Source of the DNA: Candidatus Iainarchaeum sp.
GTDB lineage: Archaea > Iainarchaeota > Iainarchaeia > Iainarchaeales > GCA-2688035
Direction: 5' to 3'
Assembly (NCBI GenBank): GCA_017610205.1
Contig: JAFCCL010000004.1
Location: 58,220-122,219 of the forward strand
DNA: 64,000 nucleotides
How positions within the stretch are numbered: the stretch's first letter is position 1; the number at the start of each line of letters is the position of its first letter. The notes under the pieces were generated by a model. That model ran no database searches. It was not told the origin of the DNA and saw only the letters and a program-made list of their open reading frames with translations. Made by a program: the position numbers and the translations under genes. This document shows positions 30,291 through 46,460 of the stretch, piece by piece.

Positions 30291-30719
30291 TTATACATAA
30301 TCTATTTTTTCTTTTAAAAAATCAATTGCCTTTTTAAGAACTGTTTTTGTATTTTTGAAGGAGAGCCTTTTCATTGCCTTTTCATAGGAAAGCCATTCAA
30401 AGCCCTTGTGCTCGTGTGAAATTTCCACATTTCCGGCAGGCGATTCTGCAAGGTAGAATGCAACTTCTTTGAATACTGTTTCTTTTCCTCTTCTGAAATA
30501 GTATTTTGTATACTGTCTAAAGCCTTTGGCTATAAGAATGTTCTGCAGGAAGGTTTCTTCTTGTACCTCGCGCCTTAGGGTTTGTTCCTCTGTTTCGCCT
30601 TGTTCAACGTGGCCTTTTGGAAAACCCCAGTGCCCTGCTTTATAATGCAACAGCAAAAATTCTTTTCCAGAATCCTTTTTTCTGAACAAAGCACATCCTA
30701 CTGATTTTTCTTTGACCAT
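30291..30719 (-). CDS. NUDIX hydrolase, Ap4A hydrolase-like
   Basis: HWGFPKGHVEQGE...RREVQEET Nudix box and SHEH..FEW. Confidence 0.92.
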   Translation of the reverse strand: MVKEKSVGCALFRKKDSGKEFLLLHYKAGHWGFPKGHVEQGETEEQTLRREVQEETFLQNILIAKGFRQYTKYYFRRGKETVFKEVAFYLAESPAGNVEISHEHKGFEWLSYEKAMKRLSFKNTKTVLKKAIDFLKEKIDYV

Positions 30720-30768
30720 TTAGATAAAAAAAGGGGGAAAATTATTTTAAGGGAATTGAACAGCCTGC

Positions 30769-30909
30769 TGTATTATCGAGCATCCGAAGGATGTGAAGAT
30801 GGTACTCGCGCCAGCCCCGCGTGTGGGTTGCCGGGCGTGACGGCTTAGTTGAGATTGTGTCATTGAGTTCAAACGAAAATGGCACCCGCACCAGCCGGGC
30901 GTGACGGCT
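30769..30909 (+). repeat. Structured repeat locus A (two full units plus one partial unit)
   Basis: GC-rich. Units are GTRTYATY-GA-stem-GAA-RATGGYAC, a 7-nt linker, then AGCCS-N7-SGGYT. Homologous to 38625-38816 and 41401-41465. Confidence 0.88.
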
Positions 30910-30910
30910 G

Positions 30911-31564
30911 CTATATGAATTGTTCATAAATTGTGTTGTTGAATTTGTATAGGAATTTTTTTATTTTTGAGCCTTTGAAATCGTATTTTTGCAGGGCCTC
31001 TTCTTTTGTTCCGGAAAAGTCTGCAAATGAATGCTTTTGGCTTGGGTCAAGGGCATAAAATTTTCCCTTGAATTCTGTTGCAACAAATGCGTGGGTTCTC
31101 AGGCTGTCGAGTTCGGAAATTATTACCGATGCCTTTTCATCTCCCAGTGCAAAAAGCAGGGAGCAGAGAAATACTGCAAGGTCTTCGTCATCCCCTACTT
31201 TTGAGGAAAAGATTTCTTTTGGTGAAAGCCAGTAGTTTAGGTTTATTTCTGGTTCAACGTAGCTTATTTTGTTTTGAACAAATGAAATTGCTTTTTCTGC
31301 TGATGCAAGGTAATCTTTTGGAAAGGCGTATTCCTGCGGTTTTAGGTCTGAGAGAATTGCTTGAATTGTTAGGTCGTCTTTGTTTACTAGAATTTTTATT
31401 TCGCCTATTGTCCTTCTTTCCTTCTCATTTATCAATTCAGCATGTTTTTCAAGTAAAAGTCTGTATAGCTTGCATTGGTTTAATTTTTCTTTGACGGATG
31501 ATTCTTCAGCTTGCGCTGGGTCTTCTCCTTCTTCAAAAAACACTTCTTCATTTTCAGGTGGCAT
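30911..31564 (-). CDS. Transglutaminase-like domain protein, catalytic Cys replaced
   Basis: YWLSPKE...GDDEDLA (canonical GDCED), HAFV and ALDP. Confidence 0.75.
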   Translation of the reverse strand: MPPENEEVFFEEGEDPAQAEESSVKEKLNQCKLYRLLLEKHAELINEKERRTIGEIKILVNKDDLTIQAILSDLKPQEYAFPKDYLASAEKAISFVQNKISYVEPEINLNYWLSPKEIFSSKVGDDEDLAVFLCSLLFALGDEKASVIISELDSLRTHAFVATEFKGKFYALDPSQKHSFADFSGTKEEALQKYDFKGSKIKKFLYKFNNTIYEQFI

Positions 31565-31655
31565 TTTTGATTATTGTGCCTAAAACTGCTTTAAAAAAGA
31601 TGCTTTTGGCTTGAAAGGGGAAAATGTTTTATTTGGGAAAATAGGTAATAATTGC

Positions 31656-33200
31656 ATGAATTTTAAGTGGTTTGAGGACTTTGCACAAAAAAAAATTTCC
31701 TCTTTGGAAAACAGCAAGCTTTCTTTTAAATATTTTGCTGCGGCGTTCTTTTTTGCGGTTGTTTTAAGAATTTTTTTGGAAAGCTTTTCAGCCCACACTT
31801 CAATCAGCTTAAATATCGTGTCTCATTTTTTTCTGTTTTACGTTTCTGTTGCAATGTCGGTAATTATTCTTTTTTGGCTGGCAACAGGTGAAAAAATAAA
31901 AAAAAGTGCCATGGTTGTATTGCCTTCTTTTATTGTGCTGATTGTTGTGCCAATAGTGGACCTTTTGGTTACAGGCGGAAAAGGGCAGCAAATTACATAT
32001 TTGCTTCCGGGAATTCATGAAAATCTGTTACTGCGTTTTTTTACATTCACAGGCGAATTTGGGAAGTGGGGGATAAGTTCAGGGATAAAGGTTGAGGGAG
32101 CAATAGTTCTTGTTGCTGCGTTTGTATACTTTTTTGCAAAAAGCAAAAAGGCTGCGCCTGTTTTTAAAATTGCAAAAGGTGTTTTTTGGACCTTTGTATT
32201 GTATGTTCTTATTTTTTCTTACAGTGCAATCCTTTTTCCAATAACCTGGTTTTTTGACTTTGCAGGCATTAATTATGACACAGTGGGATTTGCTCCGCCA
32301 TATGTTTATCTTATTCTTATTTTACTTCAGGCAATAGTTCTGGCATGGGTTGCTAACAAAAATTATTTCAAGGCAATTATTAGGGAAAGGCAATTGCTTA
32401 GGTTAATTCACTTTGAAGCAATGTTTGTTTTGGGAATTGCACTTGGTCTTTATGGAAACATTATGTTTAGGCTGCAGGCTGAACAGGCATTTAGTTTTGC
32501 AATCACTACAATTGCAATTGCATTAACCTGTTTTTATGCAATGTTTTCAAACAATATTGCAGACAGGGAAATTGACATTGTTTCAAACAAAAAAAGGGCA
32601 ATTGTAAGCAAATCTATAGAGATTGCCAAATATAAGAAAATGGCGCTGGCTTTTTTGTTGGGAGGGCTTTTTTATGCGGCAATGGCAGGCTTTGAAACAT
32701 TTTTCTTTATGCTGGTTTTTGCAGGAAACTATTTCCTTTATTCAATGCCTCCGTTCAGATTGAAAAGAATTCCAATAATTTCAAAGGCATTAATTTCTTT
32801 CAATTCCCTTATCCTTATCCTTCTTGGATTCGTTTTCATAACTGGAAACCTTGCAGACTTTCCAATCGCAATAATAGCAATTTTTCTCATTGGTTTTACC
32901 TTTTCAATAAACTTCATTGACTTAAAAGACACAAAAGGAGATAAAAAAACAGGAATAAAAACACTGCCGGTTCTGGTTGGAATCAGAAACGCAAAAATTA
33001 TTACAGGAATTTTCTTTGCAGCAACCTACCTTTCGTTTACTGCAATTGTAAAAGAATGGTGGGCATTACCAACCCTTGTAATTCTTGCTATAATACAATT
33101 TATTCTAATAAACAGGAAAACTTGCAATGAAAAGCCTGTTCTTGGACTCTACATCCTAAGCATTATTGCCCTAATAATTTATCTTGTACTAGGCACCTAG
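31656..33200 (+). CDS. UbiA prenyltransferase family protein with extra N-terminal membrane domain
   Basis: NNIADREID..SNKKR, YSMPPFRLK and DLKDTKGDKKTGIKTLP in the C-terminal half. About 15 TM helices in total. Confidence 0.85.
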   Translation: MNFKWFEDFAQKKISSLENSKLSFKYFAAAFFFAVVLRIFLESFSAHTSISLNIVSHFFLFYVSVAMSVIILFWLATGEKIKKSAMVVLPSFIVLIVVPIVDLLVTGGKGQQITYLLPGIHENLLLRFFTFTGEFGKWGISSGIKVEGAIVLVAAFVYFFAKSKKAAPVFKIAKGVFWTFVLYVLIFSYSAILFPITWFFDFAGINYDTVGFAPPYVYLILILLQAIVLAWVANKNYFKAIIRERQLLRLIHFEAMFVLGIALGLYGNIMFRLQAEQAFSFAITTIAIALTCFYAMFSNNIADREIDIVSNKKRAIVSKSIEIAKYKKMALAFLLGGLFYAAMAGFETFFFMLVFAGNYFLYSMPPFRLKRIPIISKALISFNSLILILLGFVFITGNLADFPIAIIAIFLIGFTFSINFIDLKDTKGDKKTGIKTLPVLVGIRNAKIITGIFFAATYLSFTAIVKEWWALPTLVILAIIQFILINRKTCNEKPVLGLYILSIIALIIYLVLGT

Positions 33201-33265
33201 TAAAAAAAAACCGCTTTTGGAAAAAAAGCGAAATGTTTTATTTAAAGATACTCTATATATAGCAC

Positions 33266-33757
33266 ATGAATAATGAAAAAGCACAGGTTGCAACAGAATA
33301 TATTATAATAACAGGATTCATTCTGGCGGTAGTAACCATCATTTTTGCCTATGCATATATTTCAAACAACGAAAATATCAAAGTAAACCAGGCAAGCACA
33401 GCTTTGGACAAAATGGTTAACGCCGCAAACCTTGTATACGCACTTGGCCCAGGAAACATTCAATATATTGAGGTAACATTTCCACAGGGAATTACAGAAA
33501 TTCAAGATGTCACAGTATGCAACAGCGGAATACAAAACTACAATCAGGATTGTACAGAAGAGGACGGAGTAAATTTTGGTGCAATAGAAATGACAGCGGA
33601 ACTTTTAAGCGGAGAAACATCAATCATGAGAGGGGCAAAAACAGAACTTGAACTTGATGGAGAAATTCCTGAAGATGAACGAATTCCGGAAAATGCAGGA
33701 GTGTACAGAATAAAAATTGAATGGTGCGACGACAAAATCTGCTTGAAGAGTGCTTAA
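33266..33757 (+). CDS. Minor pilin A1 (class III signal peptide)
   Basis: EKA|QVATEY followed by a hydrophobic helix. Paralog of 39843-40361. Confidence 0.88.
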   Translation: MNNEKAQVATEYIIITGFILAVVTIIFAYAYISNNENIKVNQASTALDKMVNAANLVYALGPGNIQYIEVTFPQGITEIQDVTVCNSGIQNYNQDCTEEDGVNFGAIEMTAELLSGETSIMRGAKTELELDGEIPEDERIPENAGVYRIKIEWCDDKICLKSA

Positions 33758-33758
33758 T

Positions 33759-34211
33759 ATGTCCAGTCTGAAAGAAAAGGGGCAGACGCCCATTGAAGTA
33801 ATTGCAATTGCAGTAATTATTGTAGCCCTGCTTTTGCTTGTATTTACTACAACAATGAGTAGAAATATGGAAACAGACAGAGTTCTTATAGCAGGAAAAA
33901 GCAGCATCCAATGCAATGCAATGGCTTCTACAATTGCAAGGTTGTACAACAACCGGGCAACAACACAAGAAACATTAAACCTTGAACTAGAAGCAAGACT
34001 TAGGAGAGTGGAAGGAAAACAAGGCGGAATAAATGTAGGAGAAGTAAGCTGCAGTTATATTGGAAGTGTAGCAATGTATCCAGAAGATGGAAAAAAAGAC
34101 AGCAACCCAGACGATACAGGAACTGACGGAATAACTCTTGCTATAGGCAACTGGTGTTTTGAAAAAAACCCTGATACAAATATTGTAATAACGCCGGGGG
34201 AGTGCACTTGA
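33759..34211 (+). CDS. Minor pilin B1
   Basis: EKG|QTPIE followed by a hydrophobic helix. Paralog of 40364-40768. Confidence 0.85.
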   Translation: MSSLKEKGQTPIEVIAIAVIIVALLLLVFTTTMSRNMETDRVLIAGKSSIQCNAMASTIARLYNNRATTQETLNLELEARLRRVEGKQGGINVGEVSCSYIGSVAMYPEDGKKDSNPDDTGTDGITLAIGNWCFEKNPDTNIVITPGECT

Positions 34212-34708
34212 ATAAAAAAGGCCAGGGTATTGCAATAGACTTCCTTTTTGCAGTTATGATATTCCTACTTGTACTCAATGCAAGCCTTACATTGATTGAC
34301 AGCAACAATTCAACAGCCATGGACAAAAACCTCATAGGCGAACTTCAAGCCACTACAAGCCAATCAGTTGACGCACTTGTAAGAACAGAGGGTTCGCCAA
34401 AAGACTGGCAAAACAGAAGTATTGACGAAGCAGTCATAATCGGACTGGCAAAAAGTGACAGGGTTCTTGACAACGACAAGGTTAATACATTTATTACATG
34501 GTCAAAAACTTACAGCAGTAGTGATTACAACATGGTAAAAACATTATTATTAAGTGGTTACGACTTTCATTTCAAGATAGGCGGACTTGAAGCCCCAGAA
34601 GCAAAGCCGCCTATTTGGAACGATATGACAGCAGTAAGAATAAAAAGAATTGTAAATTTTAACGGAGAGGAAGCAATTGCAGAATTCACAATATACTACC
34701 CACAATAA
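34208..34708 (+). CDS. Minor pilin C1
   Basis: KKG|QGIAIDF, G.P.DW and GLA..DRVLD..KV. Paralog of 40770-41354. Confidence 0.85.
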   Translation: MNKKGQGIAIDFLFAVMIFLLVLNASLTLIDSNNSTAMDKNLIGELQATTSQSVDALVRTEGSPKDWQNRSIDEAVIIGLAKSDRVLDNDKVNTFITWSKTYSSSDYNMVKTLLLSGYDFHFKIGGLEAPEAKPPIWNDMTAVRIKRIVNFNGEEAIAEFTIYYPQ

Positions 34709-37700
34709 AAAAGGAATGGCAATATCCATTGACGCATTGCTTGCGCTGATAATATTTGTAGCAATGGTTGCATTCATTTCAACAGACCCTGCAAGCAACC
34801 TAACAACAATACAACCAACGCTTGCAACAAATCAATTGATTGACGACGCAATTGCTGCAATGGATAGAACAGGATTTATAATGGAGTGCATTGAAAATGG
34901 TGAATTTGAGGAAATGGAAACAAAACTTGAAGCCATGCTGCCAGAAATCATGGACTACAATATTGAAATTATAAGATATGAGTCACCGCTGGACAAGGCT
35001 CCGGACAAGCCTTGCAGAGACATTGATTTAGGCCAAGATTTTGAAACATGCTTTCCATACGACACAAATGTTTACAGCATAGGAAGTGAACGGCCAACAG
35101 ACAAAGACATTTTTCACGGGCAAAAAATATTCATAAAAAAAGAATCAGGCGACTGCAGCATTGTATCCGGTTTTGAAGAAAAGAAAAAATGGCTGGAATT
35201 AATATTTGCAGGGGATAACCTACCAGAAGCAAGGGATGTAAACATTACAACAGCAGGCTCATGCCCTGGAAAAAGAAACCCCTGCCCTGCAATAGAAGAA
35301 GGGCAGATGAGATGCTGCTATACATATTACGATGAAGATATCCCACAAAACCCAGAGACTGGTGTTGAATACAAATGGTATATGTATGATGAGGACACAG
35401 ATTTGTGGGAACCGACAGGCGCAGATTTGCCAACACTTGATTTTGACGAAACTGACGACGCAAAAAGGTTCAAATGCTCTGTAAGAGTAAGAGATGGTCC
35501 AAACCCGTGGGATTGGGGAGCTGACACCAACAGCCCTCTTGCAATAATAGGCGGGCCATGCTTTGTATTTGAATCAGAAGTAACACAGGGAGAAGAACAA
35601 GTAACAGAATACAAGTGCGGAGAAACATACGACATAGATTTCAGCATTTCCGGAAGCTCAGGTGAAAGGATGGAACCTGTTGACATAATGCTTTCCTTGG
35701 ACAGAAGCGGAAGCATGAGCTGGCTTGGATTCAATGATGACACAACCGAACTTGCAAAAAGCATTTTTATTGACTCAAGCGGAGCAAGTGATATTGCATA
35801 CTTTGGAACAAACAACCAGGTATACAAATTTGGAATAAATAACCAAACAGGAGACCTTACAACACTTACAAATACAAGTTCAATAGACGACGCACAAGGG
35901 CTCTTTGTTGATGACAGCTATGTATATGTTGCCGATGATGAAAGAGGGCTTACAATACTGGACAAAGACGACTTAAGCATTGTAAGAATAATGGGTAATG
36001 ACAGCGGGAAAGAGATTACAACAGCAAAAAGCGTCTTTGTTGAAGGAGATTACATTTACCTTGCAGCAGCAGGAACCTACATACCCGGAACTGAAAAAAA
36101 ATATGACGCTGAAATGTACGCGGAAAGAAATCAGGAAGATATAAACATAGGCTATAGCTCAACAGGAAGCTGGGCAGCACAATCGTTTATACCAAATGTG
36201 CATGACATAAACGGAATAGAACTTGAGGTAAAAAAAATTGCCGGGAGAATTAATCCTGGAAACCTGACAGTTCACATTAGGCAAACACAAACAGGAACTG
36301 ACCTGACAAACGGAACAGTGGAAATTGCAGCAGGGGATATTCCAACAAACTGGGATGAATGGATTACAGCCAATTTTAATCCTTCAGTAAGCGTAACGCC
36401 TGAGCAAACCTATTACATTGCACTTACCACAACAACAGAAGGCATAGGGCCTTACTATAAATGGGGAAGCAGGCTAATCAATCCAGACCCATACAGCGAA
36501 GGAGCACTCTATGCATGCACCTCAGGCGGAATCTGCACAGAGCAATGGATTGAAGGCGAAGGATGGGAGCCTAACGAGTATGAAGACGCAAGATTCAGGA
36601 CTTTTTACTATTCTTCAATTGTAGGAGGATTAATAATAATAGACAAAAGCGACCCAGACCCAAATAATTGGAATATTTTAAGCAATATGTATAACACAGG
36701 AATCGGATTAATAGACAGACCTCAGGATGTTGTTGTCTCAGGAAATTATGCATATTTAACAGACAGAAGCGGCGGAGACGGTACACAAGGCCTTTGGATA
36801 ATTGACATAACAGACAAGTTAAGCCCTTCAATGAAAGGATTTGTAGAAGCAAGCAACCCGAATTCAGTGGAAGTTTCAGGAAACTATGCATATGTAACAG
36901 ACGGCGGAAACGGAGTAATGGTAATTGATGTAACAAACAAGTCAAACCCTTTGATTGCTCCACCAATAACCGGACTTGGCACAGTTGACGACATTGCCCT
37001 ATATGGAACAAAAATATATGTAAATGCAAATACCCCTGAAGGAGGGGCAAAAAATTACGGAGTGCATGTTATTGACATAACAACTCCTGCAGACCCTGTG
37101 CTGCAGCAAACATTTTACACACAATTTGTAATTGCAGGAGAAAATGAATATGCATTGGATGTAAGCCCTAACTGGATGGCATTGGCAAATGAATATGACC
37201 CAGACTTCTTTGAGAATTATAGTGCAATGACATTAAGCAGACAGTTTGGCAACAAAATGAACATTGCAAAGGAGTCCTCAAAAGAATTTGTCATGTTTGA
37301 AGATTGGAAGTCACCGGAAGACCAAATAGGAATCGTCAGCTACGGAGGCAGCCCTGATGTTAACTTAAACAGCGAATTGAATGAAGCAAGTACTGAAAAC
37401 AAGATAGAATTAAACGGCAAGATAGACTTTATAGAGGCATATATGGGAACTCCTATGACAAGCGGCTTGCAGACAGCAGTAGACGAGCTAAAGCTTCCGC
37501 CAACAGGAAATGGAAGCGAGGATGCAATGCAGTTTATAGTTTTGCTGGCAGATGGACAAAACGACGAAGGCGGCTTGAACGTGGCATACGATGATGCCAG
37601 AGCCAATGAGATATATATTTTCACAATAGGATTTGGAGGAGACGTTGACACAACGCAGTTGGAAAACATTTCAAAATGTGCTTACTGCCCTGATAATACT

Positions 37701-38603
37701 GATACTGAAGCAGACTGCACTGACTTTGTGCTTACAGAAAGCTCGGATTGCGGCAGCTATCACCATATAAGCGACCCGGAAGCATTAAGTGAAGTATACC
37801 AGGTTATTGCACAGAGAATTGCTGAACTTTCAGGAAAGCTTCCTGACGGTGCAACAACAGACATAGCTCTTGAGTTCAACAGATTTGGAAACGGAATGAA
37901 GATAACAGATTACACACCGGTTGAAACAGGCAACTGGGATTCTGACAACAACATTCTGAACTTTGAAAATATCGACATAAGATTTGGGTGGGAAGGCAGT
38001 TTTGAAGCAACAATAGCATGCGATTATGTAGGATGCGGCGAAGAATTTGTTGAAGGAAGCAGTATAAGCTTTCCTCCGAAAGACACTATGATTTCATACT
38101 CGCTTGACGGAATTGAACAGGACCCGATTCTATGGCCTTACAAGTTTGAAGTTGAAAAAGAAGTATATTACAATGACCTTGGCATTGAATTTGATGAAGG
38201 AAAATTTATTCCTCCAAGTGATGCATGGGTAAAATACAATGTTTTAAATGAAGGATACAAAAGCATTGACCTTGGCGACATAATTCCGACAGTAAACTTT
38301 TACAACGGAGAAACTTCTGAAACCGCATGTATTGGCAATCCTGAGAGCAGAGTTGGCGAACAACAGATTGACAAAATTGTTGAAGCAGCTTATGGCACAG
38401 ATTTCGTAAGCGAAGACAGAACAAGTGAAACAGGAGAAACAAACCTAAGTGGAAGCGGATATATTTGCCTCTGGGTAAATCAAACGCGTGGCGATGGAGA
38501 ACAGGATGTTGTTGAATGTGCCGAAAACAATCAGGCTATAATAAACTGTGACATTCCTGAAACATATATATACACCATGGATTACTGGGCGTGGCAAAAA
38601 TGA
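34677..38603 (+). CDS. Pilin-like vWA adhesin D1 with LVIVD-repeat payload
   Basis: KKG|MAISIDALL, MIDAS DRSGS, LVIVD repeats (V.VSGNYAYV.D...G..VIDV), remainder of vWA (IGIVSY, IVLLADG, IFTIGFG) and C-terminal DYWAWQK. Confidence 0.88.
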   Translation: MQNSQYTTHNKKGMAISIDALLALIIFVAMVAFISTDPASNLTTIQPTLATNQLIDDAIAAMDRTGFIMECIENGEFEEMETKLEAMLPEIMDYNIEIIRYESPLDKAPDKPCRDIDLGQDFETCFPYDTNVYSIGSERPTDKDIFHGQKIFIKKESGDCSIVSGFEEKKKWLELIFAGDNLPEARDVNITTAGSCPGKRNPCPAIEEGQMRCCYTYYDEDIPQNPETGVEYKWYMYDEDTDLWEPTGADLPTLDFDETDDAKRFKCSVRVRDGPNPWDWGADTNSPLAIIGGPCFVFESEVTQGEEQVTEYKCGETYDIDFSISGSSGERMEPVDIMLSLDRSGSMSWLGFNDDTTELAKSIFIDSSGASDIAYFGTNNQVYKFGINNQTGDLTTLTNTSSIDDAQGLFVDDSYVYVADDERGLTILDKDDLSIVRIMGNDSGKEITTAKSVFVEGDYIYLAAAGTYIPGTEKKYDAEMYAERNQEDINIGYSSTGSWAAQSFIPNVHDINGIELEVKKIAGRINPGNLTVHIRQTQTGTDLTNGTVEIAAGDIPTNWDEWITANFNPSVSVTPEQTYYIALTTTTEGIGPYYKWGSRLINPDPYSEGALYACTSGGICTEQWIEGEGWEPNEYEDARFRTFYYSSIVGGLIIIDKSDPDPNNWNILSNMYNTGIGLIDRPQDVVVSGNYAYLTDRSGGDGTQGLWIIDITDKLSPSMKGFVEASNPNSVEVSGNYAYVTDGGNGVMVIDVTNKSNPLIAPPITGLGTVDDIALYGTKIYVNANTPEGGAKNYGVHVIDITTPADPVLQQTFYTQFVIAGENEYALDVSPNWMALANEYDPDFFENYSAMTLSRQFGNKMNIAKESSKEFVMFEDWKSPEDQIGIVSYGGSPDVNLNSELNEASTENKIELNGKIDFIEAYMGTPMTSGLQTAVDELKLPPTGNGSEDAMQFIVLLADGQNDEGGLNVAYDDARANEIYIFTIGFGGDVDTTQLENISKCAYCPDNTDTEADCTDFVLTESSDCGSYHHISDPEALSEVYQVIAQRIAELSGKLPDGATTDIALEFNRFGNGMKITDYTPVETGNWDSDNNILNFENIDIRFGWEGSFEATIACDYVGCGEEFVEGSSISFPPKDTMISYSLDGIEQDPILWPYKFEVEKEVYYNDLGIEFDEGKFIPPSDAWVKYNVLNEGYKSIDLGDIIPTVNFYNGETSETACIGNPESRVGEQQIDKIVEAAYGTDFVSEDRTSETGETNLSGSGYICLWVNQTRGDGEQDVVECAENNQAIINCDIPETYIYTMDYWAWQK

Positions 38604-38837
38604 AATTACAAACACAAGCAAGCCTGTGTCATCGAGCCAAAGCGAATTGTGTCATCAAGTCCAAACGAAAATGGCACCCAGACCAGGCGAGTTGTGTCAT
38701 CAAGTCCAAACGAAAATGGGACTCTGACCAGCCGGCAGTGGCGGCTCTCGCACCAACTAGGCCGTGTCATCAAGTCCAAACGAAAATGGCACCCGCACCA
38801 GCCGGGCGTAACGGCTACTGGGCGTGGCAAAAATGAA
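38583..38837 (+). mobile_element. Structured-repeat concatemer (locus B) between 22-bp direct repeats
   Basis: TACTGGGCGTGGCAAAAATGAA at 38583-38604 and 38816-38837 (233 bp apart), enclosing four full or truncated units. Confidence 0.85.
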
Positions 38838-39819
38838 CCAACGAGGAATTTTCATAACATTCATGGTATTTTTGCTTGTCGGAAGCGTTATTGCATTGCA
38901 TGATACTACAAAAAAAACAGATTTAAGGCAGGAAAAAAAATATATTGAGGAAGCAGCCTTTAACAATATAAACAATGCTTTCAACAACGTTTACGAAGAA
39001 GTTATTTCACTAAACAAGGAGGGGAACGCAAGAATTATACAGATTCGGTCACTTCCTTTTTCATACGACTTTAACAAAAATTCAATTATTCTAAGCCAAC
39101 AGATTCCAATAAGATTAAGCGTACTTGACGCATATATTGATACATTAAACGTTTACCGCATTTTTACCGGAAGTGGACTTACAACAGACCTTAACATTGT
39201 TACAGGAACACTTCAAAACACAGCATGGGATGGAGGAGAAGACTATCCAGACTTCAATTATGCAATTCTGCCACAATGCCTTTTGTACGACGTAAACGCA
39301 GACAGCACAATGGTTTTAAGGGAACTTGAAGCAGGGCAGTTTGGATGCGAAAAAGGATTCAATTACACAGACCTTAACATAATTGATATAAACATTTCAA
39401 TTGACTCAAGTCTGTGTACAGCAGGATCTCATCTTGGGACATTGGAACTAACAGGTTTGTCTAAACCTTACCCAGAGTATAGAATAACAGTAAATGAAAC
39501 AAACCCAAGTTATCCAATAACAGGAGGAGGCAAGCTTGAATACTATGGCCACTTTGACCCGGAAAGTTATGGCCCTGGAGAAGACTGGTTTACAATAAAA
39601 TGTAATACAGGCGGCAGTGAAGAACCATGGCTTAGAGTAAAACTTGGAATGGAAAGTGCAAACGACCCGTTTCCATTTGTTGCAAAAAACTTTATTCCTG
39701 CACAGCCAGTGGATATTGATTTAAATATGGTATTTGATACAAAAGTGGACCTGTTTTACTTTACAGGGTTTTCCATAAGCGTTAATAAGGTAAACTTTCC
39801 AATAAAAAGGACTACATAA
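38833..39819 (+). CDS. Pilin-like protein E1
   Basis: NQRG|IFITFMVFLL and LQNTAWDGGEDYP..Y.I.PQCL. Paralog of 46457-47482. Confidence 0.82.
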   Translation: MNQRGIFITFMVFLLVGSVIALHDTTKKTDLRQEKKYIEEAAFNNINNAFNNVYEEVISLNKEGNARIIQIRSLPFSYDFNKNSIILSQQIPIRLSVLDAYIDTLNVYRIFTGSGLTTDLNIVTGTLQNTAWDGGEDYPDFNYAILPQCLLYDVNADSTMVLRELEAGQFGCEKGFNYTDLNIIDINISIDSSLCTAGSHLGTLELTGLSKPYPEYRITVNETNPSYPITGGGKLEYYGHFDPESYGPGEDWFTIKCNTGGSEEPWLRVKLGMESANDPFPFVAKNFIPAQPVDIDLNMVFDTKVDLFYFTGFSISVNKVNFPIKRTT

Positions 39820-39842
39820 AAGGAAAAAAAGGAGGAAATTAA

Positions 39843-40361
39843 ATGGCTGGAAAAAAGGCACAAATTGCAATGGAATACCTTATTCTAACAGGCTTTATTC
39901 TTGTAGCAGTGGCATTGATTTTTGGATTTTCATTCATAAACTATAATCAAAACATCAGAATTGCAAAAACAAGCGAAGCCATTTCAAAGCTTTCAAACGC
40001 AGTTGATGACATTTATACAAGAGGCGAAGGAAACACCAGGTTTGTAAAAATATCATGGCCTGACGGAATGAAAAACATTAGCATAGTGTACAAATGCCTT
40101 AATGGAACCCAACAAGACAATGCAGAAGGCTGTGGTGACAGCGAATATGGCGATGTAGAATTCAGCGTAATTTCCATGGAAGTGCAATTACTTGGAGAGG
40201 ACGTAATTGTGATGGAGAGAACCAAGGCAAAAATAAAAGAAAAACTTGACGGCATGGACGACATGGACATACATGGAAACTTTAACCAGTACTCTGGAAG
40301 CACGTACATTGTAAAAGTAAGCTGGACTAGCTCAGGGCTAATACAACTTGAGAGGGTATAA
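39843..40361 (+). CDS. Minor pilin A2
   Basis: KKA|QIAMEYLILTGFIL. Confidence 0.88.
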   Translation: MAGKKAQIAMEYLILTGFILVAVALIFGFSFINYNQNIRIAKTSEAISKLSNAVDDIYTRGEGNTRFVKISWPDGMKNISIVYKCLNGTQQDNAEGCGDSEYGDVEFSVISMEVQLLGEDVIVMERTKAKIKEKLDGMDDMDIHGNFNQYSGSTYIVKVSWTSSGLIQLERV

Positions 40362-40363
40362 AA

Positions 40364-40768
40364 ATGCAAAATAAAGGCCAGGTTTCAATCGAAGTAATGT
40401 TAATTGTCATAATTCTCCTTGGATTATTGCTTGCAACCTCGTACATAATGATGCAAAGAAGCAATGATATAAACAGGCTTGCGACAATTCAAAGAGACAC
40501 ACAAAAATGCGACAATATTGCTTCAGCAATAGTAAGTTTGAGTTCAAACACAGGCTATAGCGAAATGATTGTAACAGGATTTGAAAAGGATGTAAGAATT
40601 GAAAAAGGAAGCGTTATTGTTGGAAATGTTGGATGCAGCTACAAAGGAGATGTGTGGTTTGGTAATAAAAGTGCTGAAAATGAAGACATTTGGCTGCTTA
40701 AGAATCAAACATATTTTATAAAAAAAATAGGTGAAAAAGTGAAGTTTGAATTAGTTGAGGAGGAATAA
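40364..40768 (+). CDS. Minor pilin B2
   Basis: NKG|QVSIE, with C..IAS.I and VG.V.CSY.G shared with B1. Confidence 0.85.
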   Translation: MQNKGQVSIEVMLIVIILLGLLLATSYIMMQRSNDINRLATIQRDTQKCDNIASAIVSLSSNTGYSEMIVTGFEKDVRIEKGSVIVGNVGCSYKGDVWFGNKSAENEDIWLLKNQTYFIKKIGEKVKFELVEEE

Positions 40769-40769
40769 C

Positions 40770-41354
40770 TTGAACAAAAAAGGTCAAGGAATAGCAATTG
40801 ACCTTATGGCAGGTGTTCTGATATTCATAATTATAGGCTCAAGTATTATGTTTGTGTGGGGAGACAAATCGTTTGAAGTGGAAGAAAACCTTTTTGAAAA
40901 TGAAAGAATTGCAATGGCTGAAAGGACTCTTGACACAATAGTAATAAGCAAGGGCCTGCCAACAGATTGGGAAAAATACATTGGAACAGAAGAGGAGATT
41001 GCCAACAACATTAAAATGCTTGGACTTGCAAGAAGAGACAGGGTTCTTGACAAAAAAAAGGTTGAAAAATTTGCAGAATTAAGCAATTTTGAAGATAATT
41101 ACGCAATTCTGAAAACAAAACTATTAATTGGAGGAAACGAGTACTATTTTAGGATTTTGGATCCGAAAAGGGAAAATGTTGACGAACAAATAATCAGCGC
41201 AGGAGAAAGTCCAACAGGCAATGTAGTAGAAATCAGAATCGAAAGAGCGGTGATATACAGCTATCACAGAGACGGAGTAGATGAAGGAGATACAAACAGT
41301 CAGCATGAAGCAATAGCTGAACTGATATTATACTCATCATACTGGAGGAGATAA
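40770..41354 (+). CDS. Minor pilin C2
   Basis: KKG|QGIAIDL. TTG start after SD GAGGAGG. Confidence 0.85.
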   Translation: MNKKGQGIAIDLMAGVLIFIIIGSSIMFVWGDKSFEVEENLFENERIAMAERTLDTIVISKGLPTDWEKYIGTEEEIANNIKMLGLARRDRVLDKKKVEKFAELSNFEDNYAILKTKLLIGGNEYYFRILDPKRENVDEQIISAGESPTGNVVEIRIERAVIYSYHRDGVDEGDTNSQHEAIAELILYSSYWRR

Positions 41355-41357
41355 GGA

Positions 41358-44300
41358 ATGAAAAAGAAATGTTTTGCAAAGCAAACTTCCAAAAACCAGA
41401 AGATTGTGTCATCGAGCAACCAAAGGTTGCGAAGATGGCACTCTGACCAGCCGGCAGGGGCGGCTAAAGGATTTGCTATTGCGGTTGATGCATTACTTGC
41501 AACAGTGCTTACAATAACAGTGCTTACAGTTATAGGCTTTGGAATGCAATCAAACGAAGACATAATAACGTCATCAGAAATAAGAATAAAACAAACTGTT
41601 GACGACACATTCACCGCCCTTAACAACAGTGGAACTATTGCAAAATATCTGGCAGACCCACAACTAACCCAGACTAGCATTTTTAATCCAGACGACCCAG
41701 AAAATCCAGGAATCTACACAGAAGCACAACAGCTTCTGCCGAAAAACATTGGCTTGAAAGTAAAAGTAAGCGAGTACTTGGCAGCTGAAGGCACGGATTT
41801 AGACACCTGCAAAGCAACCAAAAATTTTTCCGACTGCTTTGGCGTACCAACAGGCACTCCATTTGAAGAAGTAGAATGGCCTCTAGAAAGCCTGCCAAAC
41901 AATGAAATTGTACACGGCAGAAAAATTGCAATAACGAAAGAAATATCAACAGGCGAAACTGCAGAAGGAAAAGAATGTGTTCCTGTTGAAAATCTGGAGC
42001 TTAAAGAGTCAATAAAAGAAAAAGTAAACGCTGTGTTTTTAGAAGGCGAAACAGGTATTGAAACATGGATTGAAATAACCGACACAGATGACACGCCAAT
42101 AGACGAACTCTCCTGCGACCAAATTGCAAAAGTTACCATAAGGGCAAGAAACCAAGCCAGAGACCCTGTTGCAATAGTGCTTGCAATGGACGAAAGCGGA
42201 AGCATGAGCACATACGATGCACTAACCCAAGAAGCAACAGGAACATTCAATGCAGGAACATGCAACGACGAACCAGTTTGGGTTGGAGGAAGATTTGAAA
42301 ATGGGTTGGAATTCAACGGCATAACAAACTATGTTAACTGCGGAAACGACTCAGCATTCAATATCCTGGGACAGCTTACAATTGCAGCATGGATAAAGAT
42401 AGATAATGTTGACGAAGACAAATGGATGGTGATTATCAAAAAAAAATATGCCTATTACACTGAAGAAAAAGGCTACGAAATGCTGTACAACCCAGGCCTT
42501 AATGAAGTAAGGCTTGTTGGAGGCGGAGGCGCCTATGCAAAAGCCATAGGCGTTGACCTTGACACAGGATGGCATTTTATAGTAGGAACCATAGACAACG
42601 AAACAGGCGAAATTTACGTTGACACAATAAAAAAGACTACCTGGTATATAATTAGCAGCCTTAAAAGTGGCGCAGACCCAGTAGAAATAGGAAACAGGGA
42701 ACGAAGTCTGAGCAATGGAGACAGGTTCGGCGGAATAATAGACGAAATAAGGCTGTATAATAGGGTACTTACTTCTGAAGAAATAAACGGGCTTTTCGCA
42801 AGCAACACAGAGGTTGGAGATGCAGCAACATCCTTGGTTGCACACTGGGCATTTAATGAAACAGAAAATTTGATTGCAGCAGACAGCAGCGGAAACGGCA
42901 GAAATTGCTCCCTTCAAAACTGGTCCCACTATTATCCAGAAGGAGCAACAGAGTGCATATGGGAAGCAGGGCAAGCAGCAAATCCAGTTACAAACTGCCC
43001 TGCAACAAAATGCGATTACGCAGAATTCACAGACGAGGAAATTGCATTAACCTACGAGATTACACCAAGCTTTTTTGAGAAGATTGTTCCACCATACGAC
43101 AGCCTGAGTTTTTTAGGAGATAGTACATTATACGAAGGAATTTGTACAGACCCTGCAGAGATGAGATTGTGGATAGAAAGGCCTGATGGAGAAGTAGAAT
43201 GTGAAAGTTCAGGAGATGGCGAAACAATAAATAATAGCCAAATTGAAACCGGCGTATACAAAATAAACGTCTGGAGCGATGCACCAGTCGACTACGATAT
43301 CAGGCTTGTACAAAATCTAAAGCGATATGTATATGATAGGCCTTTTGGGGGCGGAGGACATTCAGGCAGTTATAATCCAGGAGAAAGTGAGTGTACAGAC
43401 TTTACAGGATGGGATGAGTTAACAAGCTTTGACTTTTCAGATTACAACAGCCTTCGCTATGTATACTTCAGAATCTTATACGACGCATATACTTCAATTG
43501 GAGGGGCATGTGGAACGCCAAGGTTTAGAGTAAGCTATGAAAGCAATGGCAGTGAATGGATACCTGCAAAATTTGGCAACGGCATGGATTTCAAACACAA
43601 ACAAACATGGGCTAATAATGATAATGCAAACTATATAGAACTTCCAAGCGGTGTAAACCCTGGTATAACAGACAGTTTTAGCTTTTCAACATGGTTTAAG
43701 GGAGGAGAAAGAGTAATTTATGACTACTATCCAACAATGTTCAATTGGGAAAATGACGCAGGAGACAGCAAGCTCTGGATTGGAATACCTAGCAGGAATG
43801 AGGATACTGTTGGCGTTGAACTTAACGGCTTTTTATACTTTTTTAGCGGAGATACATACTTGTATGACATGGCATGGCATCATTTGGTTTTTACCTACGA
43901 TAAGCCAAGCAAAACACTCACAGCATACATAGACGGAGAAGTTTACGCCACCCCAAAATCAGGATTTGTTGACCGAAGCTTTGACTTCACCAACAGCAGT
44001 GCATGGATTGGAACCAACAGAGAAGCCACCGAAGGCTACTTATATCGATCATGGTTTGGCGGGCTTGATGAAGTAAGGCTTTACAACAAAGCACTTACCA
44101 CCGAAGAAATAAGCGAACTTTTCACAAGCAATACAGCTGGAGGTGCAACCACCTCATTGGTTGCACACTGGGCACTAAATGAAAGCACTGGCTACAGTGT
44201 AGCAGACTCCTCAGGAAATGGAAACAATGGAACAGCAGTCCTTGACCAGGAATGGATTATAGGCCCTTGTGGAACAGGTGATTTCAGCGGTTGCGTTCCA

Positions 44301-46460
44301 GGAATAAATACCTGGAGTGGTGCTTACGGACCATTTCTAAGGCAAGGGACTTACAAAGTTGAGGGATGGAGTGATACAGTTACTGATACATCAGCAGATG
44401 TTGAATTATACAGAGGATACCAAGAATGGGGCTATATTTACGGAGACTGGACTAAATCCGAACTTATTGACGGAGGCACATGCAGCAATACGACATGCCA
44501 GTATCAAACAACACCTTCAACAACAGCAAATACAAACTGTCCAATTACAAGCAACGTAAACCCTTATTTCTACAATTATTCAAGGCTCCCAGGGGCAACA
44601 GGCACGCAAACAATTGACACATACAATGTTTCTATAAACCACTACGGATTGCAGGCAGAAGTTACCTTTGACTACACAAATTACACAGACGCAGTATGCC
44701 AAGGAGCAGGAATGGGATTGCAAAACGCTTTTGAAACAGACCCAAACTGGCATTATCCAACCCCGGTGAAAGGAAGCAGTCTAACAAAAACATTTTATAT
44801 AAACGACGGGCCAAGCACACCTTCAGGGCAAGAATATTACAACCATGCTGACGGGCCGCCAATAACAAAAGGAGACTATGACATTTTAGGATGGGCAGAA
44901 GAGGATGTAAGCTACGACATTAAATGGATTCTTCAAAGAATTGATGGAGCAAAAAAGGCAGCAACCAACTTTATGAATAATGCTAGCTGGCAGGCAGATG
45001 ACGAAATAGGCCTTGTTTCTTTTTCAAACACAGCAGAAATAGACCAAGAGCTTACAATAGACAAGGATGCAGTAAAAAATGCAATAGAAGCTCTTGTTCC
45101 AAGTGATGAAACAGGAATAGCCAACGCAATAAATAAATCGATAGAAGAATTAGAACTCAACGCAGAAGCAGGAGTAGCAAGGTTTGTTATATTGCTTACA
45201 GACGGACGGGCAAATGTTTGCAGTGACGGAAGCGTATGCGATGAGGCAGTGGCAATAGATGAGGCAATAGCAGCAGCCAATGACGCAAGAGACAATCATC
45301 AAACAATAATTTATGTTATTGGATTTGCAGAGCCGTCACTAATTGATGAAAACAGTATGAAACAAATTGCCAAGGACAAAGATGCCTTTCCTGAAGAATG
45401 TATAGATAGTGAAAGCAGGTGCGGCAAATATTACTATGCTGAAGATGCAAAAACCCTTGAAGAAATGTATACTTTGATTTCGTTTGAAATAGCAAGGGTT
45501 GTTGGAAACATTGACATAAAAATCCCCATCCCGGCAGGAATAGAACTAAGCAATTATGGCAGTGAAACAGAGAAAAAATGCGGACTTTGGAATGAGGCAG
45601 GAGAAGTTTTCTTGGATCCAGAAGTAGAGTGTTATGGAAAATGCAGCAGCGGGGAAAGCACATGTGTTAGTGGAGAAGAACTTATTTACAGCAATCAGGG
45701 AATAAGCTACTGGTGGCTGGCTGAATTTGATATGGTATCGCCATGCGATGCAGAAAATTGTGAAGAAAGCTATGTTCTCTTTCCTCCAATTGACACAGAA
45801 ATTATAGATAATGCTGACGAAAGCAGTGTCAGTTGGGATGGAAGCGAAATAGAAACTCTGGAATGTGGAGTAGGAGAAAACACTAAATGTCACAAAAGAA
45901 TAAAAATAAAGTATGCCGACCTTAATGTAGCCTTCACATATGGATTACTGAAAACAGGACCGCCGGAAACAGTAACAATTAATTTCGAAATAGGAAACGA
46001 CGGCTACACAAATATAGACCTACCTACAGTTATAGGAAATGGACTGGATGTCTGCTTTTATAAAAAAGAGATAATTCCGGGCAACGAGATATCAATAAAA
46101 TCTGCTTCATTACCTCTTGCAATCTTGGGAGAGAAAAGCAGTATTACTTTAGATAGAGAAATATCAAGCAACTGCCTAAAAATTTCCATTCCAGGCACAG
46201 CAGTAGTTGATGGAACCTGTTCCTGGAAAGAAGACCTATGCACAGTTCCATACGATGAAACATACTGGAAAATTAAAATAGATGACCTTGTTCTCAACGG
46301 CTGTCCAAATGATAATTGCACAGGAACAATAATCGCAGAAATAAATCAAAATCACTACAACAATGTTAGTGAATGCCAGCTACACAATCAGGGCAGGATT
46401 ATCTGCAGCGGAGAACGCCTAAGATTCTTTACCATAGACTATTATGCGTGGATAAAATGA
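41358..46460 (+). CDS. Pilin-like vWA adhesin D2 with two LamG domains in its payload
   Basis: KG|FAIAVDALL, MIDAS DESGS, two LamG domains, remainder of vWA (IGLVSF, VILLTDG, IYVIGF) and C-terminal DYYAWIK. Confidence 0.88.
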   Translation: MKKKCFAKQTSKNQKIVSSSNQRLRRWHSDQPAGAAKGFAIAVDALLATVLTITVLTVIGFGMQSNEDIITSSEIRIKQTVDDTFTALNNSGTIAKYLADPQLTQTSIFNPDDPENPGIYTEAQQLLPKNIGLKVKVSEYLAAEGTDLDTCKATKNFSDCFGVPTGTPFEEVEWPLESLPNNEIVHGRKIAITKEISTGETAEGKECVPVENLELKESIKEKVNAVFLEGETGIETWIEITDTDDTPIDELSCDQIAKVTIRARNQARDPVAIVLAMDESGSMSTYDALTQEATGTFNAGTCNDEPVWVGGRFENGLEFNGITNYVNCGNDSAFNILGQLTIAAWIKIDNVDEDKWMVIIKKKYAYYTEEKGYEMLYNPGLNEVRLVGGGGAYAKAIGVDLDTGWHFIVGTIDNETGEIYVDTIKKTTWYIISSLKSGADPVEIGNRERSLSNGDRFGGIIDEIRLYNRVLTSEEINGLFASNTEVGDAATSLVAHWAFNETENLIAADSSGNGRNCSLQNWSHYYPEGATECIWEAGQAANPVTNCPATKCDYAEFTDEEIALTYEITPSFFEKIVPPYDSLSFLGDSTLYEGICTDPAEMRLWIERPDGEVECESSGDGETINNSQIETGVYKINVWSDAPVDYDIRLVQNLKRYVYDRPFGGGGHSGSYNPGESECTDFTGWDELTSFDFSDYNSLRYVYFRILYDAYTSIGGACGTPRFRVSYESNGSEWIPAKFGNGMDFKHKQTWANNDNANYIELPSGVNPGITDSFSFSTWFKGGERVIYDYYPTMFNWENDAGDSKLWIGIPSRNEDTVGVELNGFLYFFSGDTYLYDMAWHHLVFTYDKPSKTLTAYIDGEVYATPKSGFVDRSFDFTNSSAWIGTNREATEGYLYRSWFGGLDEVRLYNKALTTEEISELFTSNTAGGATTSLVAHWALNESTGYSVADSSGNGNNGTAVLDQEWIIGPCGTGDFSGCVPGINTWSGAYGPFLRQGTYKVEGWSDTVTDTSADVELYRGYQEWGYIYGDWTKSELIDGGTCSNTTCQYQTTPSTTANTNCPITSNVNPYFYNYSRLPGATGTQTIDTYNVSINHYGLQAEVTFDYTNYTDAVCQGAGMGLQNAFETDPNWHYPTPVKGSSLTKTFYINDGPSTPSGQEYYNHADGPPITKGDYDILGWAEEDVSYDIKWILQRIDGAKKAATNFMNNASWQADDEIGLVSFSNTAEIDQELTIDKDAVKNAIEALVPSDETGIANAINKSIEELELNAEAGVARFVILLTDGRANVCSDGSVCDEAVAIDEAIAAANDARDNHQTIIYVIGFAEPSLIDENSMKQIAKDKDAFPEECIDSESRCGKYYYAEDAKTLEEMYTLISFEIARVVGNIDIKIPIPAGIELSNYGSETEKKCGLWNEAGEVFLDPEVECYGKCSSGESTCVSGEELIYSNQGISYWWLAEFDMVSPCDAENCEESYVLFPPIDTEIIDNADESSVSWDGSEIETLECGVGENTKCHKRIKIKYADLNVAFTYGLLKTGPPETVTINFEIGNDGYTNIDLPTVIGNGLDVCFYKKEIIPGNEISIKSASLPLAILGEKSSITLDREISSNCLKISIPGTAVVDGTCSWKEDLCTVPYDETYWKIKIDDLVLNGCPNDNCTGTIIAEINQNHYNNVSECQLHNQGRIICSGERLRFFTIDYYAWIK
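41401..41465 (+). repeat. Structured repeat locus C, a single unit in frame within the adhesin signal peptide
   Basis: AGATT-GTGTCATC-GA-GCAACC-AAA-GGTTGC-GAA-GATGGCAC-TCTGACC-AGCCG-GCAGGGG-CGGCT. Confidence 0.88.

Follow-up and report, generated by a model that had tools for sequence, protein, structure and literature searches.

This analysis concerns a family of small, structured repeat units in a 64,000-nt stretch of DNA from Candidatus Iainarchaeum sp. (assembly GCA_017610205.1, contig JAFCCL010000004.1, positions 58,220–122,219 of the forward strand), referred to here as the window. The genome to which the window belongs, G000, comprises 1.37 Mb in 24 contigs (C labels; the window lies on C19) and is 92% complete. 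Other G labels denote related genomes, and L labels denote loci inspected in these relatives. The window contains five full and three partial units at three loci, on the + strand throughout; a repeat finder and direct reading agree in this with a preliminary description of the sequence, which had counted five full and several partial copies. The units have a G+C content of 57–62%, compared to ~38% for the window, and their tail motif, AGCCG-N7-CGGCT, occurs four times where 0.01 occurrences are expected, a number reached by none of 100 shuffles. The units belong to a lineage-specific family of small non-autonomous mobile elements found in one DPANN-type archaeal order.

A full unit is composed of an 8-bp helix (P1), a GA/GAA internal loop, a variable apical stem, a 7-nt linker and a final hairpin with a 5-bp stem and a 7-nt loop, and this loop pairs with the linker. 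The same parts had been named before and are readily seen in the sequences. The core measures ~43–60 nt, or ~80–100 nt together with a left part. Bit scores given below are from a covariance model that was built from 15 aligned G000 units with nested pairs only, leaving out the pseudoknot helix.

At locus 1, the first full unit (30771–30829; model match 30770–30829, 54.9 bits) is a variant in P1 and the apical stem and has a degenerate final hairpin. Directly 3′ of it lies an extra tail piece (30830–30845) consisting of the last hairpin minus its first base, a double-tail form that recurs at two G000 loci (C1:57221 and C17:91242). The second full unit (30857–30909, 75.3 bits) stops 1 nt short of the low end of a minus-strand open reading frame (ORF; 30911–31564, stop-codon complement 30911–30913) with a transglutaminase-like product according to Pfam. 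A short palindrome follows the unit at this locus. Locus 2 is an array, in which a 212-nt insert (38605–38816) has the same 21-nt stretch on both sides. The left copy of this target-site duplication (38584–38604) contains the last codons and the stop of an ORF of 1308 aa. It is followed by a 21-nt 5′ filler (38605–38625) with a degenerate left GCRAGC motif inside, which is missing from empty sites, and by a head-only partial unit (38626–38648) that holds the 5′ strand of P1 and the apical stem and ends after the GAA loop. Next come a unit truncated within the last hairpin (38649–38693, 45.8 bits), a full unit of the CUG/CAG pseudoknot type (38694–38746, 70.1 bits), a 17-nt spacer that on direct reading resembles a linker remnant (38747–38763), and a full unit of the CGC/GCG type (38764–38816, 74.6 bits). 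The last base of this unit is the end of the insert and adjoins the right copy of the duplication (38817–38837), which contains the ATG of the next gene (38833–38835); the product of that gene has a class III-signal-like N-terminus. Locus 3 holds a single full unit of 60 nt (41406–41465, 67.7 bits), in frame as 20 codons within ORF 41358–46460, which encodes a 1700-aa LamG/VWA protein (Pfam).

The fold is conserved through covariation. RNAfold recovers its nested part, namely P1, the GA/GAA loop, the apical stem and the last hairpin. Among the 15 G000 copies, 94.7% of cells were paired, compared to 85.4% in shuffles, and 10 of 22 pairs had changed on both sides; none of 500 shuffles reached these values. 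A larger set comprised 97 model matches (94 distinct rows) from 30-odd genomes. In this set, 96.2% of cells held standard pairs, against 76.4% after shuffling and 26–54% when the partners were slid, and double-sided changes were found in 17 of 18 pairs, which bears out the compensatory changes first reported for the window copies. Covariation backs all four helices, including the linker–loop pseudoknot, whose cells pair in 94.2% of cases though this helix is outside the model. The linker and loop triplets CGC/GCG (35 copies), CGU/ACG (30), CUG/CAG (10) and CAG/CUG (4), all fully complementary, account for 79 of the 97 copies, and AAUU-type variants were also observed. Three linker bases are paired with loop positions 2–4 of the 5-bp/7-nt-loop hairpin that forms the invariant 3′ end of the unit. 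This makes a compact H-type pseudoknot, the geometry of which, with loops of 3, 1 and 3 nt, is in our reading the classical one.

Other parts of the unit are more variable. P1 is spelled in many ways across copies, and minimal forms of 43 nt have, besides the pseudoknot, only an 8-bp hairpin with a closing GAA loop, and lack the internal loop. An optional left module (GCGAGC, 3–8 nt, GCGAGC, A, pyrimidine) is present in most copies that have a promoter-like upstream region, and could fold as a hairpin with tandem G·A pairs. RNAfold paired the left module with the linker in two leader copies; by eye, other linker types lack a matching change in the left module, and this pairing competes with the well-supported pseudoknot, so it was rejected. 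A kink-turn, the L7Ae-binding motif, was also considered for the first hairpin. Its consensus is a 3-nt bulge followed by invariant tandem G·A/A·G pairs; the supposed sheared G of the unit covaries as a Watson–Crick partner (column 8/94: C-G 44, U-A 23, G-C 5), and the candidate was discarded. At C17:91259–91363 in G000, the first hairpin is interrupted by an apparent nested unit-like hairpin, giving a 105-nt model match.

Selection for the structure in a single strand had been proposed from its wobble pairs, and this proposal holds in a weaker form. Paired columns contain 39 G-U/U-G cells versus 17 A-C/C-A cells, an excess that is a modest sign that the unit strand is the folded strand. In folding calculations, in which the pseudoknot stood outside, the 60-nt unit of locus 3 gave z = −4.4 on the + strand and z = −1.8 for its complement, and two 53-nt units gave no significant z on either strand. 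The uniform + orientation noted before is a property of the window. Genome-wide, the tail motif occurs 17 times in G000, 8 forward and 9 reverse, with no occurrence of a reversed control pattern.

A scan with the covariance model, as had been suggested for a check, found 26 matches in G000 at E<0.01, on both strands. Among 61 related genomes, 30 carry the unit, with 1–27 copies each; these include all 6 congeners and 13 of the 22 genomes of the family, and the distribution is patchy beyond. In a phylum-wide sample, the unit is present in 32 of 151 genomes and 23 of 62 genera, and the model found no match in several genomes that are 93–99% complete. A degenerate tail pattern was also searched against public contigs. 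Among the matches listed, 76 of 80 were bacterial, chance occurrences in GC-rich DNA. True copies among these listed matches came from two contigs of a Candidatus Iainarchaeum metagenome-assembled genome (MAG) and from one further archaeal MAG, and 15 other listed loci gave no model match. These copies place the host lineage among DPANN-type archaea. In viral contigs, 18 stretches with the tail pattern all scored 26 bits or less with the model. Nine of these viral loci were read, eight with 62–73% GC and one with 44%, and the first hairpin was present in none.

The family is undescribed so far. Rfam 15 gave no match in the whole window at gathering thresholds, and with E up to 10 it gave two chance-level matches only within 30600–41700, both away from the units. 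A full-text search of the literature, supplements aside, found no account of the unit, and passages of one preprint (bioRxiv 10.64898/2026.09.22.753630) hold no description of it. The preliminary description had named an Rfam or insertion sequence (IS) end match, a lack of further copies and a lack of covariation as outcomes that would speak against its proposal of an undescribed multi-copy family; none of them occurred. There is a real chance that the family moves by a new mechanism.

The units are mobile, as had been suggested, and this is evident from empty sites in congeners and from target duplications. Locus 2 is empty in G004 and G006, where the 21-nt target is present once and the stop codon of the 1308-aa gene shares bases with the ATG of the gene that follows. 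It is also empty in G003, with a single target as judged from overlapping match coordinates. At locus 3, the G004 orthologue lacks the insert and reads straight through, while in the window the 60-nt unit plus ~9 nt of filler replace ~15 nt, in frame. Locus 1 is occupied in all four congeners read there (G001, G003, G004 and G005) by units that differ in variant and number, always against the stop codon of the minus-strand gene. More widely, 11 of the 97 copies have a direct repeat of 14–34 nt that starts 0–1 nt after the unit end and recurs within 160 nt upstream, compared to none of 97 with a probe shifted by 60 nt. This count leaves out the array of window locus 2, L047:1273, L262 and a diverged pair at C17:89846 in G000 that was seen by eye. 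The right end of the insertions is sharp and their left side varies, in line with the earlier observation on the window copies: the 3′ junction is invariant, and the left junction is never sharp, the upstream repeat being separated from P1 by the left module, by 2 to ~50 nt of unrelated sequence that is often A+T-rich, or by both. In a compact genome, the duplications let insertions near gene ends survive.

The unit has a preference for the ends of tRNA genes, which is new relative to the preliminary description; the window itself gave no tRNA gene in a tRNA scan. Our survey covered 105 matches, 26 in G000 and the 79 best-scoring in 27 relatives, with tRNAs called by aragorn at a relaxed threshold and curated by eye (calls overlapping units were removed, and three missed tRNAs were added). 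The 3′ end of the unit lies −1 to 6 nt before the 5′ end of a same-strand tRNA in 19 of the 105 matches, and 0–2 nt from the 3′ end of an opposite-strand tRNA in 9. Another 3 units, in three relatives, are positioned at an exon end within a tRNA intron; those at L040 and L049, in tRNA-Tyr, adjoin the 3′ exon, and the one at L046 is antisense and adjoins the 5′ exon. A further 9 lie 3–77 nt after a same-strand tRNA, and 6 of these are followed by a repeat of the last 14–24 nt of the tRNA, usually from the T-loop onward. At C17:89846, a seventh after-tRNA unit has a duplicated, diverged tRNA 3′ part. The tRNAs with a unit at the same-strand 5′ end are Gly, Ile and Tyr in G000, and Ile, Ala, Asp, Tyr, Pro, His, Met, Arg, Gly, Ser and Leu in the relatives, and at L242 a single tRNA-Ser is positioned between two inward-facing units. 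The adjoining end is always the 3′ end of the unit, and the nearest approach of a unit 5′ end to a tRNA end is 3 nt. Even for a sample that is not unbiased, the excess at tRNA ends is enormous, because with ~45 tRNA genes per 1.2 Mb, a 7-nt interval before each on one strand amounts to only ~0.01% of positions.

The tRNA-Gly(GCC) gene illustrates insertion into a leader. In G004 and G006 this tRNA has no leader unit, and a TATA-like box is positioned ~27 nt before the tRNA +1. In G000, G002 and G003, an insert of ~70–100 nt (left part and unit) sits exactly between the TATA-box spacing and the tRNA, and these inserts diverge far more than their flanks, so that the site is either a hot spot or subject to fast turnover. 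The G000 insert starts at the expected transcription start and ends 1 nt before the tRNA +1. It fills the distance from promoter spacing to tRNA and would therefore be coextensive with the pre-tRNA leader.

In the tRNA-Tyr introns, given the geometry of the bulge-helix-bulge motif, the last bases of the unit can be paired with anticodon-loop positions 32–35, yielding the 4-bp helix of a bulge-helix-bulge site. Sense copies may be found in these introns because of this pairing. Long introns of ~65–225 nt are present in the tRNA-Tyr genes at C24:5146–5290 in G000, L040:1393–1596 and L049:1289–1580. Within one genus, the tRNA-Tyr unit is in the leader in G000 and in the intron in G001. At C16:89169–89658 in G000, two tRNA-Ala(GGC) genes bracket units and two copies of a ~100-nt repeat. 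Each of these repeats starts with a 21-nt fragment of the tRNA-Ala 3′ end, an arrangement that looks like repeated integration or duplication.

Beside protein genes, the copies likewise insert at gene boundaries with the 3′ end toward the neighbor, and rarely in frame in tolerant parts of surface proteins. Several units, including that of locus 1, end 0–2 nt from the stop codon of an opposite-strand protein gene or overlap it. At locus 2, L060 and L231, the unit comes after a gene on its own strand, and the final codons of that gene are duplicated. Three G000 copies are translated, all in the same frame: the locus 3 unit, C3:9451 and C3:9796. The latter two are within a 345-nt repeat that belongs to an open frame of 1183 aa or more, whose glycine-rich repeats resemble those of the window LamG protein. 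The locus 3 insertion is in the N-terminal part of a class III-type signal peptide, a placement that the preliminary description had not noted. It precedes the Lys-Gly/Phe motif and, by the cleavage rule for class III signals, should therefore be cleaved off. Removal of this in-frame copy by bulge-helix-bulge splicing was considered and rejected, as its exon flanks showed no pairing by eye.

The genes around loci 2 and 3 form a cluster (34677–46460) that encodes proteins with class III (pilin-like) signal peptides and two giant surface proteins, one of 1308 aa with LVIVD and VWA domains and one of 1700 aa with LamG and VWA domains (Pfam). Stretches of ~50 nt are common to distant parts of this region (34442–34492 and 41022–41072; 35673–35720 and 42162–42209). 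Elsewhere in G000, a 178-aa open frame that by eye resembles a transposase N-terminus (C3:209429–209965) runs into a degenerate unit and stops just after it, and the genes that come next here and after the C17:91242 unit are paralogues. At five G037 loci (L050, L248, L253, L254 and L255), a small ACGAAA-loop hairpin often comes immediately after the unit, and another repeated GC-rich palindrome precedes it; that genome therefore contains further small repeat families, which combine with the unit.

The unit was compared with several classes of known elements. As in repetitive extragenic palindromic (REP) sequences and the REPIN elements built from them, a short imperfect palindrome is repeated at gene boundaries. 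The usual mobilizer of such repeats, a Y1 (HUH) transposase, shows no co-occurrence with the unit, being present in 11 of 30 unit-bearing and 10 of 31 unit-free genomes, and the flanks of the seven Y1 loci of G000 contain no unit; mobilization of a REP or REPIN by a REP-associated tyrosine transposase (RAYT) was rejected on both counts, which deprives the REP-like alternative of the preliminary description of its customary mobilizer. Y1 transposases are absent from the unit-rich genomes G002, G003, G017, G033 and G037 and present in all four genomes of one genus without units. An IS200/IS605 end or a TnpB omega-RNA was also rejected, since no unit lies in the 300 nt downstream of 4 TnpB and 7 Y1 loci of G000. 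A miniature inverted-repeat transposable element (MITE) would not account for the lack of terminal inverted repeats or for a duplication that is not fixed in length (14–34 nt in 11 of 97 copies). Integron attC sites have R″/L″…L′/R′ boxes and a GTTRRRY core, and no such core was found at the unit ends of the window copies. As attachment-site scars of an integrase, the duplicated sequences would need a common core; they differ from one another, include non-tRNA targets and have none. The signature expected of SINEs (short interspersed elements) and other target-primed retroposons is present: the 3′ junction is invariant, and the 5′ side and the length of the duplications vary.

Transposase-type genes do occur in the window and elsewhere in G000. 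A minus-strand TnpB-type gene at 2391–2588 (C19:60610–60807; Cas12f1-like_TNB, 76 bits, in a 404-aa frame) has IS200/605-like flanks and is unrelated to the units. At the other end, a partial minus-strand Y1 transposase gene (63733–63999; C19:121952–122218) is cut by the contig end and has a GC-rich hairpin just after its stop. Two paralogous, divergent Y1_Tnp-like frames of 196 and 198 aa (C10:42002–42700 and C16:52000–52630) are each followed by the same GC-rich sequence of ~95 nt, which looks like a separate structured element tied to the HUH gene.

Our best reading, to which we give roughly even chances, is that the unit is a non-autonomous element that spreads via a folded single strand, probably the pre-tRNA leader RNA. 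One strand, most likely as RNA, would serve as the intermediate of transposition, and for this reason the fold would be under selection in that strand. Where a copy lies between a tRNA promoter and the tRNA +1, it would be transcribed from its first base as a pre-tRNA leader, and RNase P, whose RNA is found in G000 (93.6 bits), would remove this leader and so give the copies their common, sharp 3′ end. From tRNA-Tyr introns, the unit would be released likewise by the splicing endonuclease. The released RNA could then be copied back into DNA at nicked targets by target-primed copy-and-paste, and the leader copies would represent a ready source of RNA with ends set by the promoter and RNase P. 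Among known modes of insertion, the signature best resembles target-primed copying of RNA in its invariant 3′ junction, loose 5′ side and duplications of up to 34 nt. The inserting enzyme appears to be neither a canonical RVT_1 reverse transcriptase nor a Y1 HUH transposase. In a more specific form, which we put forward tentatively and consider possible rather than probable, the unit is an archaeal SINE counterpart: an element coextensive with the pre-tRNA leader or tRNA-Tyr intron, excised by RNase P or the splicing endonuclease, whose pseudoknot 3′ end recruits a non-canonical polymerase that copies the RNA into nicked DNA at transcript ends.

Several observations weigh against this leader RNA reading. 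No RVT_1 gene was found in G000, in any of the 22 other genomes of the family or, among the unit-rich genomes, in G037 (97% complete, 27 unit matches); RVT_1, the one polymerase family searched for, occurs in 3 of 30 unit-bearing and 4 of 31 unit-free genomes. The evidence on the earlier suggestion that the unit is RNA-derived or SINE-like is therefore divided: the insertion signature fits target-primed copying, and RVT_1 is absent from G000 and does not co-occur with the unit. Copies facing the 3′ end of an opposite-strand tRNA or protein gene cannot owe their 3′ end to RNase P acting on a sense tRNA. No duplication is detectable in 86 of the 97 copies, and none was found for copies adjoining tRNA 5′ ends or opposite-strand tRNA 3′ ends. 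Target-primed copying that is aborted should leave pieces truncated on the 5′ side, and the head-only and 3′-truncated pieces of locus 2 show the reverse. Transcription of the unit and the ends of its RNA are deduced from promoter spacing, and the 105 matches of the tRNA survey are not an unbiased sample. DNA also tolerates G-T pairs, and a single-stranded DNA intermediate fits the fold equally well.

The last point leads to a DNA element that moves as single-stranded DNA, in the manner of REPs and bacterial interspersed mosaic elements (BIMEs), palindrome-associated transposable elements (PATEs) or MITEs, and is mobilized in trans by an enzyme that recognizes the hairpin and pseudoknot. This we regard as a serious but rather doubtful alternative. 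Its insertion sites would lie at the foot of stable DNA hairpins, among them tRNA genes (either strand) and small terminator-like hairpins, for example at stalled replication forks. The 3′ end of the unit meets tRNA genes in both orientations, which would follow if each strand of such a gene can fold as single-stranded DNA, and insertion at a hairpin foot explains this two-orientation pattern better than the RNA route does. The ACGAAA-loop hairpins that often directly follow G037 units, the palindrome after the unit at locus 1, the mosaic arrays with head-only and tail-only pieces as in BIMEs, the G-T pairs permitted in DNA, and the lack of RVT_1 in G000 and of its co-occurrence with units are all consistent with such a route. 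The Y1 counts given above, the absence of Y1 from five unit-rich genomes and the ends of the four TnpB and seven Y1 loci of G000, which carry no unit, argue against a known HUH mobilizer. Terminal inverted repeats are also absent, and we know of no HUH or DDE element that gives a variable 5′ boundary together with long, variable duplications. Integrase-driven plasmids or viruses in tRNA genes offer another DNA-based account, in which the units are scars or neighbors of attachment sites, with the repeated tRNA 3′ parts as att cores. Like att sites, the repeated pieces often extend from the T-loop up to the 3′ end of the tRNA; G000 has five tyrosine-recombinase genes, three of them near tRNA genes; and tRNA-Ala fragments are repeated at C16. 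We nevertheless consider this account very improbable, since duplications are also found at unrelated non-tRNA targets (window locus 2, L045, L241, L231, L060 and L264), all of which no integrase core could pre-match, the inserts measure just ~60–210 nt, and the viral stretches with the tail pattern all stayed at or below 26 bits and, where read, lacked the first hairpin.

Two further explanations assign the unit a function. A functional RNA module would be an element of 5′ leaders, trailers or introns that aids the expression, processing or stability of tRNAs or mRNAs, for example as a protein-binding or exonuclease-blocking structure, and that has spread through duplication and is maintained by selection. 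Covariation shows the fold to be conserved in many genera, and leader units recur at the same tRNAs in different genera: at Gly-GCC and at Tyr in both G000 and G014, and at His in G014 and G018. Protein-binding motifs may be represented by the GA/GAA loop and by the left module with its tandem GA, and some copies lie just before ribosome-binding sites (C20:13500). On the other hand, the unit is patchy in both genome samples and missing from several genomes of 93–99% completeness; its copy number ranges from 0 to 27; a minority of the tRNAs of a genome carry it; congeners differ in its presence at one and the same tRNA; and some copies are in frame within coding sequence. This patchiness, polymorphism and coding insertion lead us to rank the functional module below the RNA and DNA routes, as an unlikely explanation. 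A self-cleaving ribozyme that cuts at its own 3′ end, thereby making tRNA 5′ ends or freeing itself, is less credible still and in our view scarcely to be expected. Ribozymes adjoining tRNAs are known in phages, and a compact pseudoknot with conserved unpaired purines directly at tRNA 5′ ends would suit such a role. However, the distance to the tRNA +1 ranges from −1 to 6 nt, and therefore the tRNA, not the unit, would set the cut; RNase P RNA is present in G000, the minimal 43-nt forms lack the internal loop, and there is no match to an Rfam ribozyme family.

DPANN genomes are thought to be streamlined, and to our knowledge little has been described of small interspersed repeats in archaea and almost nothing in DPANN. 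The family combines four features: a fold that covaries across genera, polymorphism from relative to relative, long and variable duplications, and near-nucleotide precision at tRNA exon ends on either strand. No known mobilizer explains this combination. If the leader RNA reading is true, with RNA cut by RNase P as the intermediate, the units would be the first prokaryotic analogue of SINE retroposition, an RNA-mediated transposition without a dedicated retroelement protein, and would point to an unrecognized activity of RNA-templated DNA synthesis. If the units moved as DNA, they would point to a structure-directed insertion mechanism not yet known. By either route, copies between promoter and tRNA lengthen pre-tRNA leaders from a few to ~100 nt, and copies are tolerated in a cleaved signal peptide and in surface proteins. 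In these very small genomes, the element thus gives rise to variation in regulation as well as in coding sequence. It also offers a practical marker for strain-level comparison of these uncultured archaea.

Compared with known systems, the unit has several partial relatives. Its behavior is like that of REP/BIME, RPE or SINE-type elements, and it falls short of each of these families in the defining tests that were run. Like IS200/IS605 ends, PATEs and TnpB omega-RNAs, it has asymmetric, hairpin-defined ends, a single-strand logic and one sharp end followed by flanking DNA. Unlike these, it has target duplications, no co-occurrence with Y1 and a length far below that of omega-RNA scaffolds, and the TnpA and TnpB loci of G000 end otherwise. 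The Rickettsia palindromic elements (RPEs) are likewise small palindromic repeats of a reduced genome that occur in frame in genes or between them; they differ from the unit in sequence, size and host, and we know of no pseudoknot or tRNA-end preference among them. REP, BIME and REPIN repeats, which are bacterial and mobilized by RAYT (Y1 HUH) transposases, resemble the unit in being short, GC-rich, structured and multi-copy, in lying at gene boundaries, in forming mosaic arrays of whole and partial units, and in that fold matters over sequence. The unit differs from them in its pseudoknot, its two- or three-domain fold, its archaeal host, its long and variable duplications, its precise abutment on tRNA exon ends and its lack of co-occurrence with Y1. 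It is polymorphic in presence and absence between close relatives, and neither its 5′ end nor its duplication length is fixed. Unlike SINEs, the unit is prokaryotic, has no A-rich tail, has a core that is not derived from tRNA, occurs in 3′-truncated pieces and has no RVT_1 reverse transcriptase beside it in G000 or in co-occurrence across genomes. As in SINEs and other target-primed retroposons, it is small, structured and non-coding; its 3′ junction is invariant, its 5′ side varies, and its duplications vary in length between 14 and 34 nt. Retroelements that target tRNA genes include Ty3 of yeast and the tRNA gene-targeted retroelements (TRE) of Dictyostelium, and with these and the SINEs the unit has in common its insertion at the start of tRNA genes and source copies placed under a tRNA promoter.

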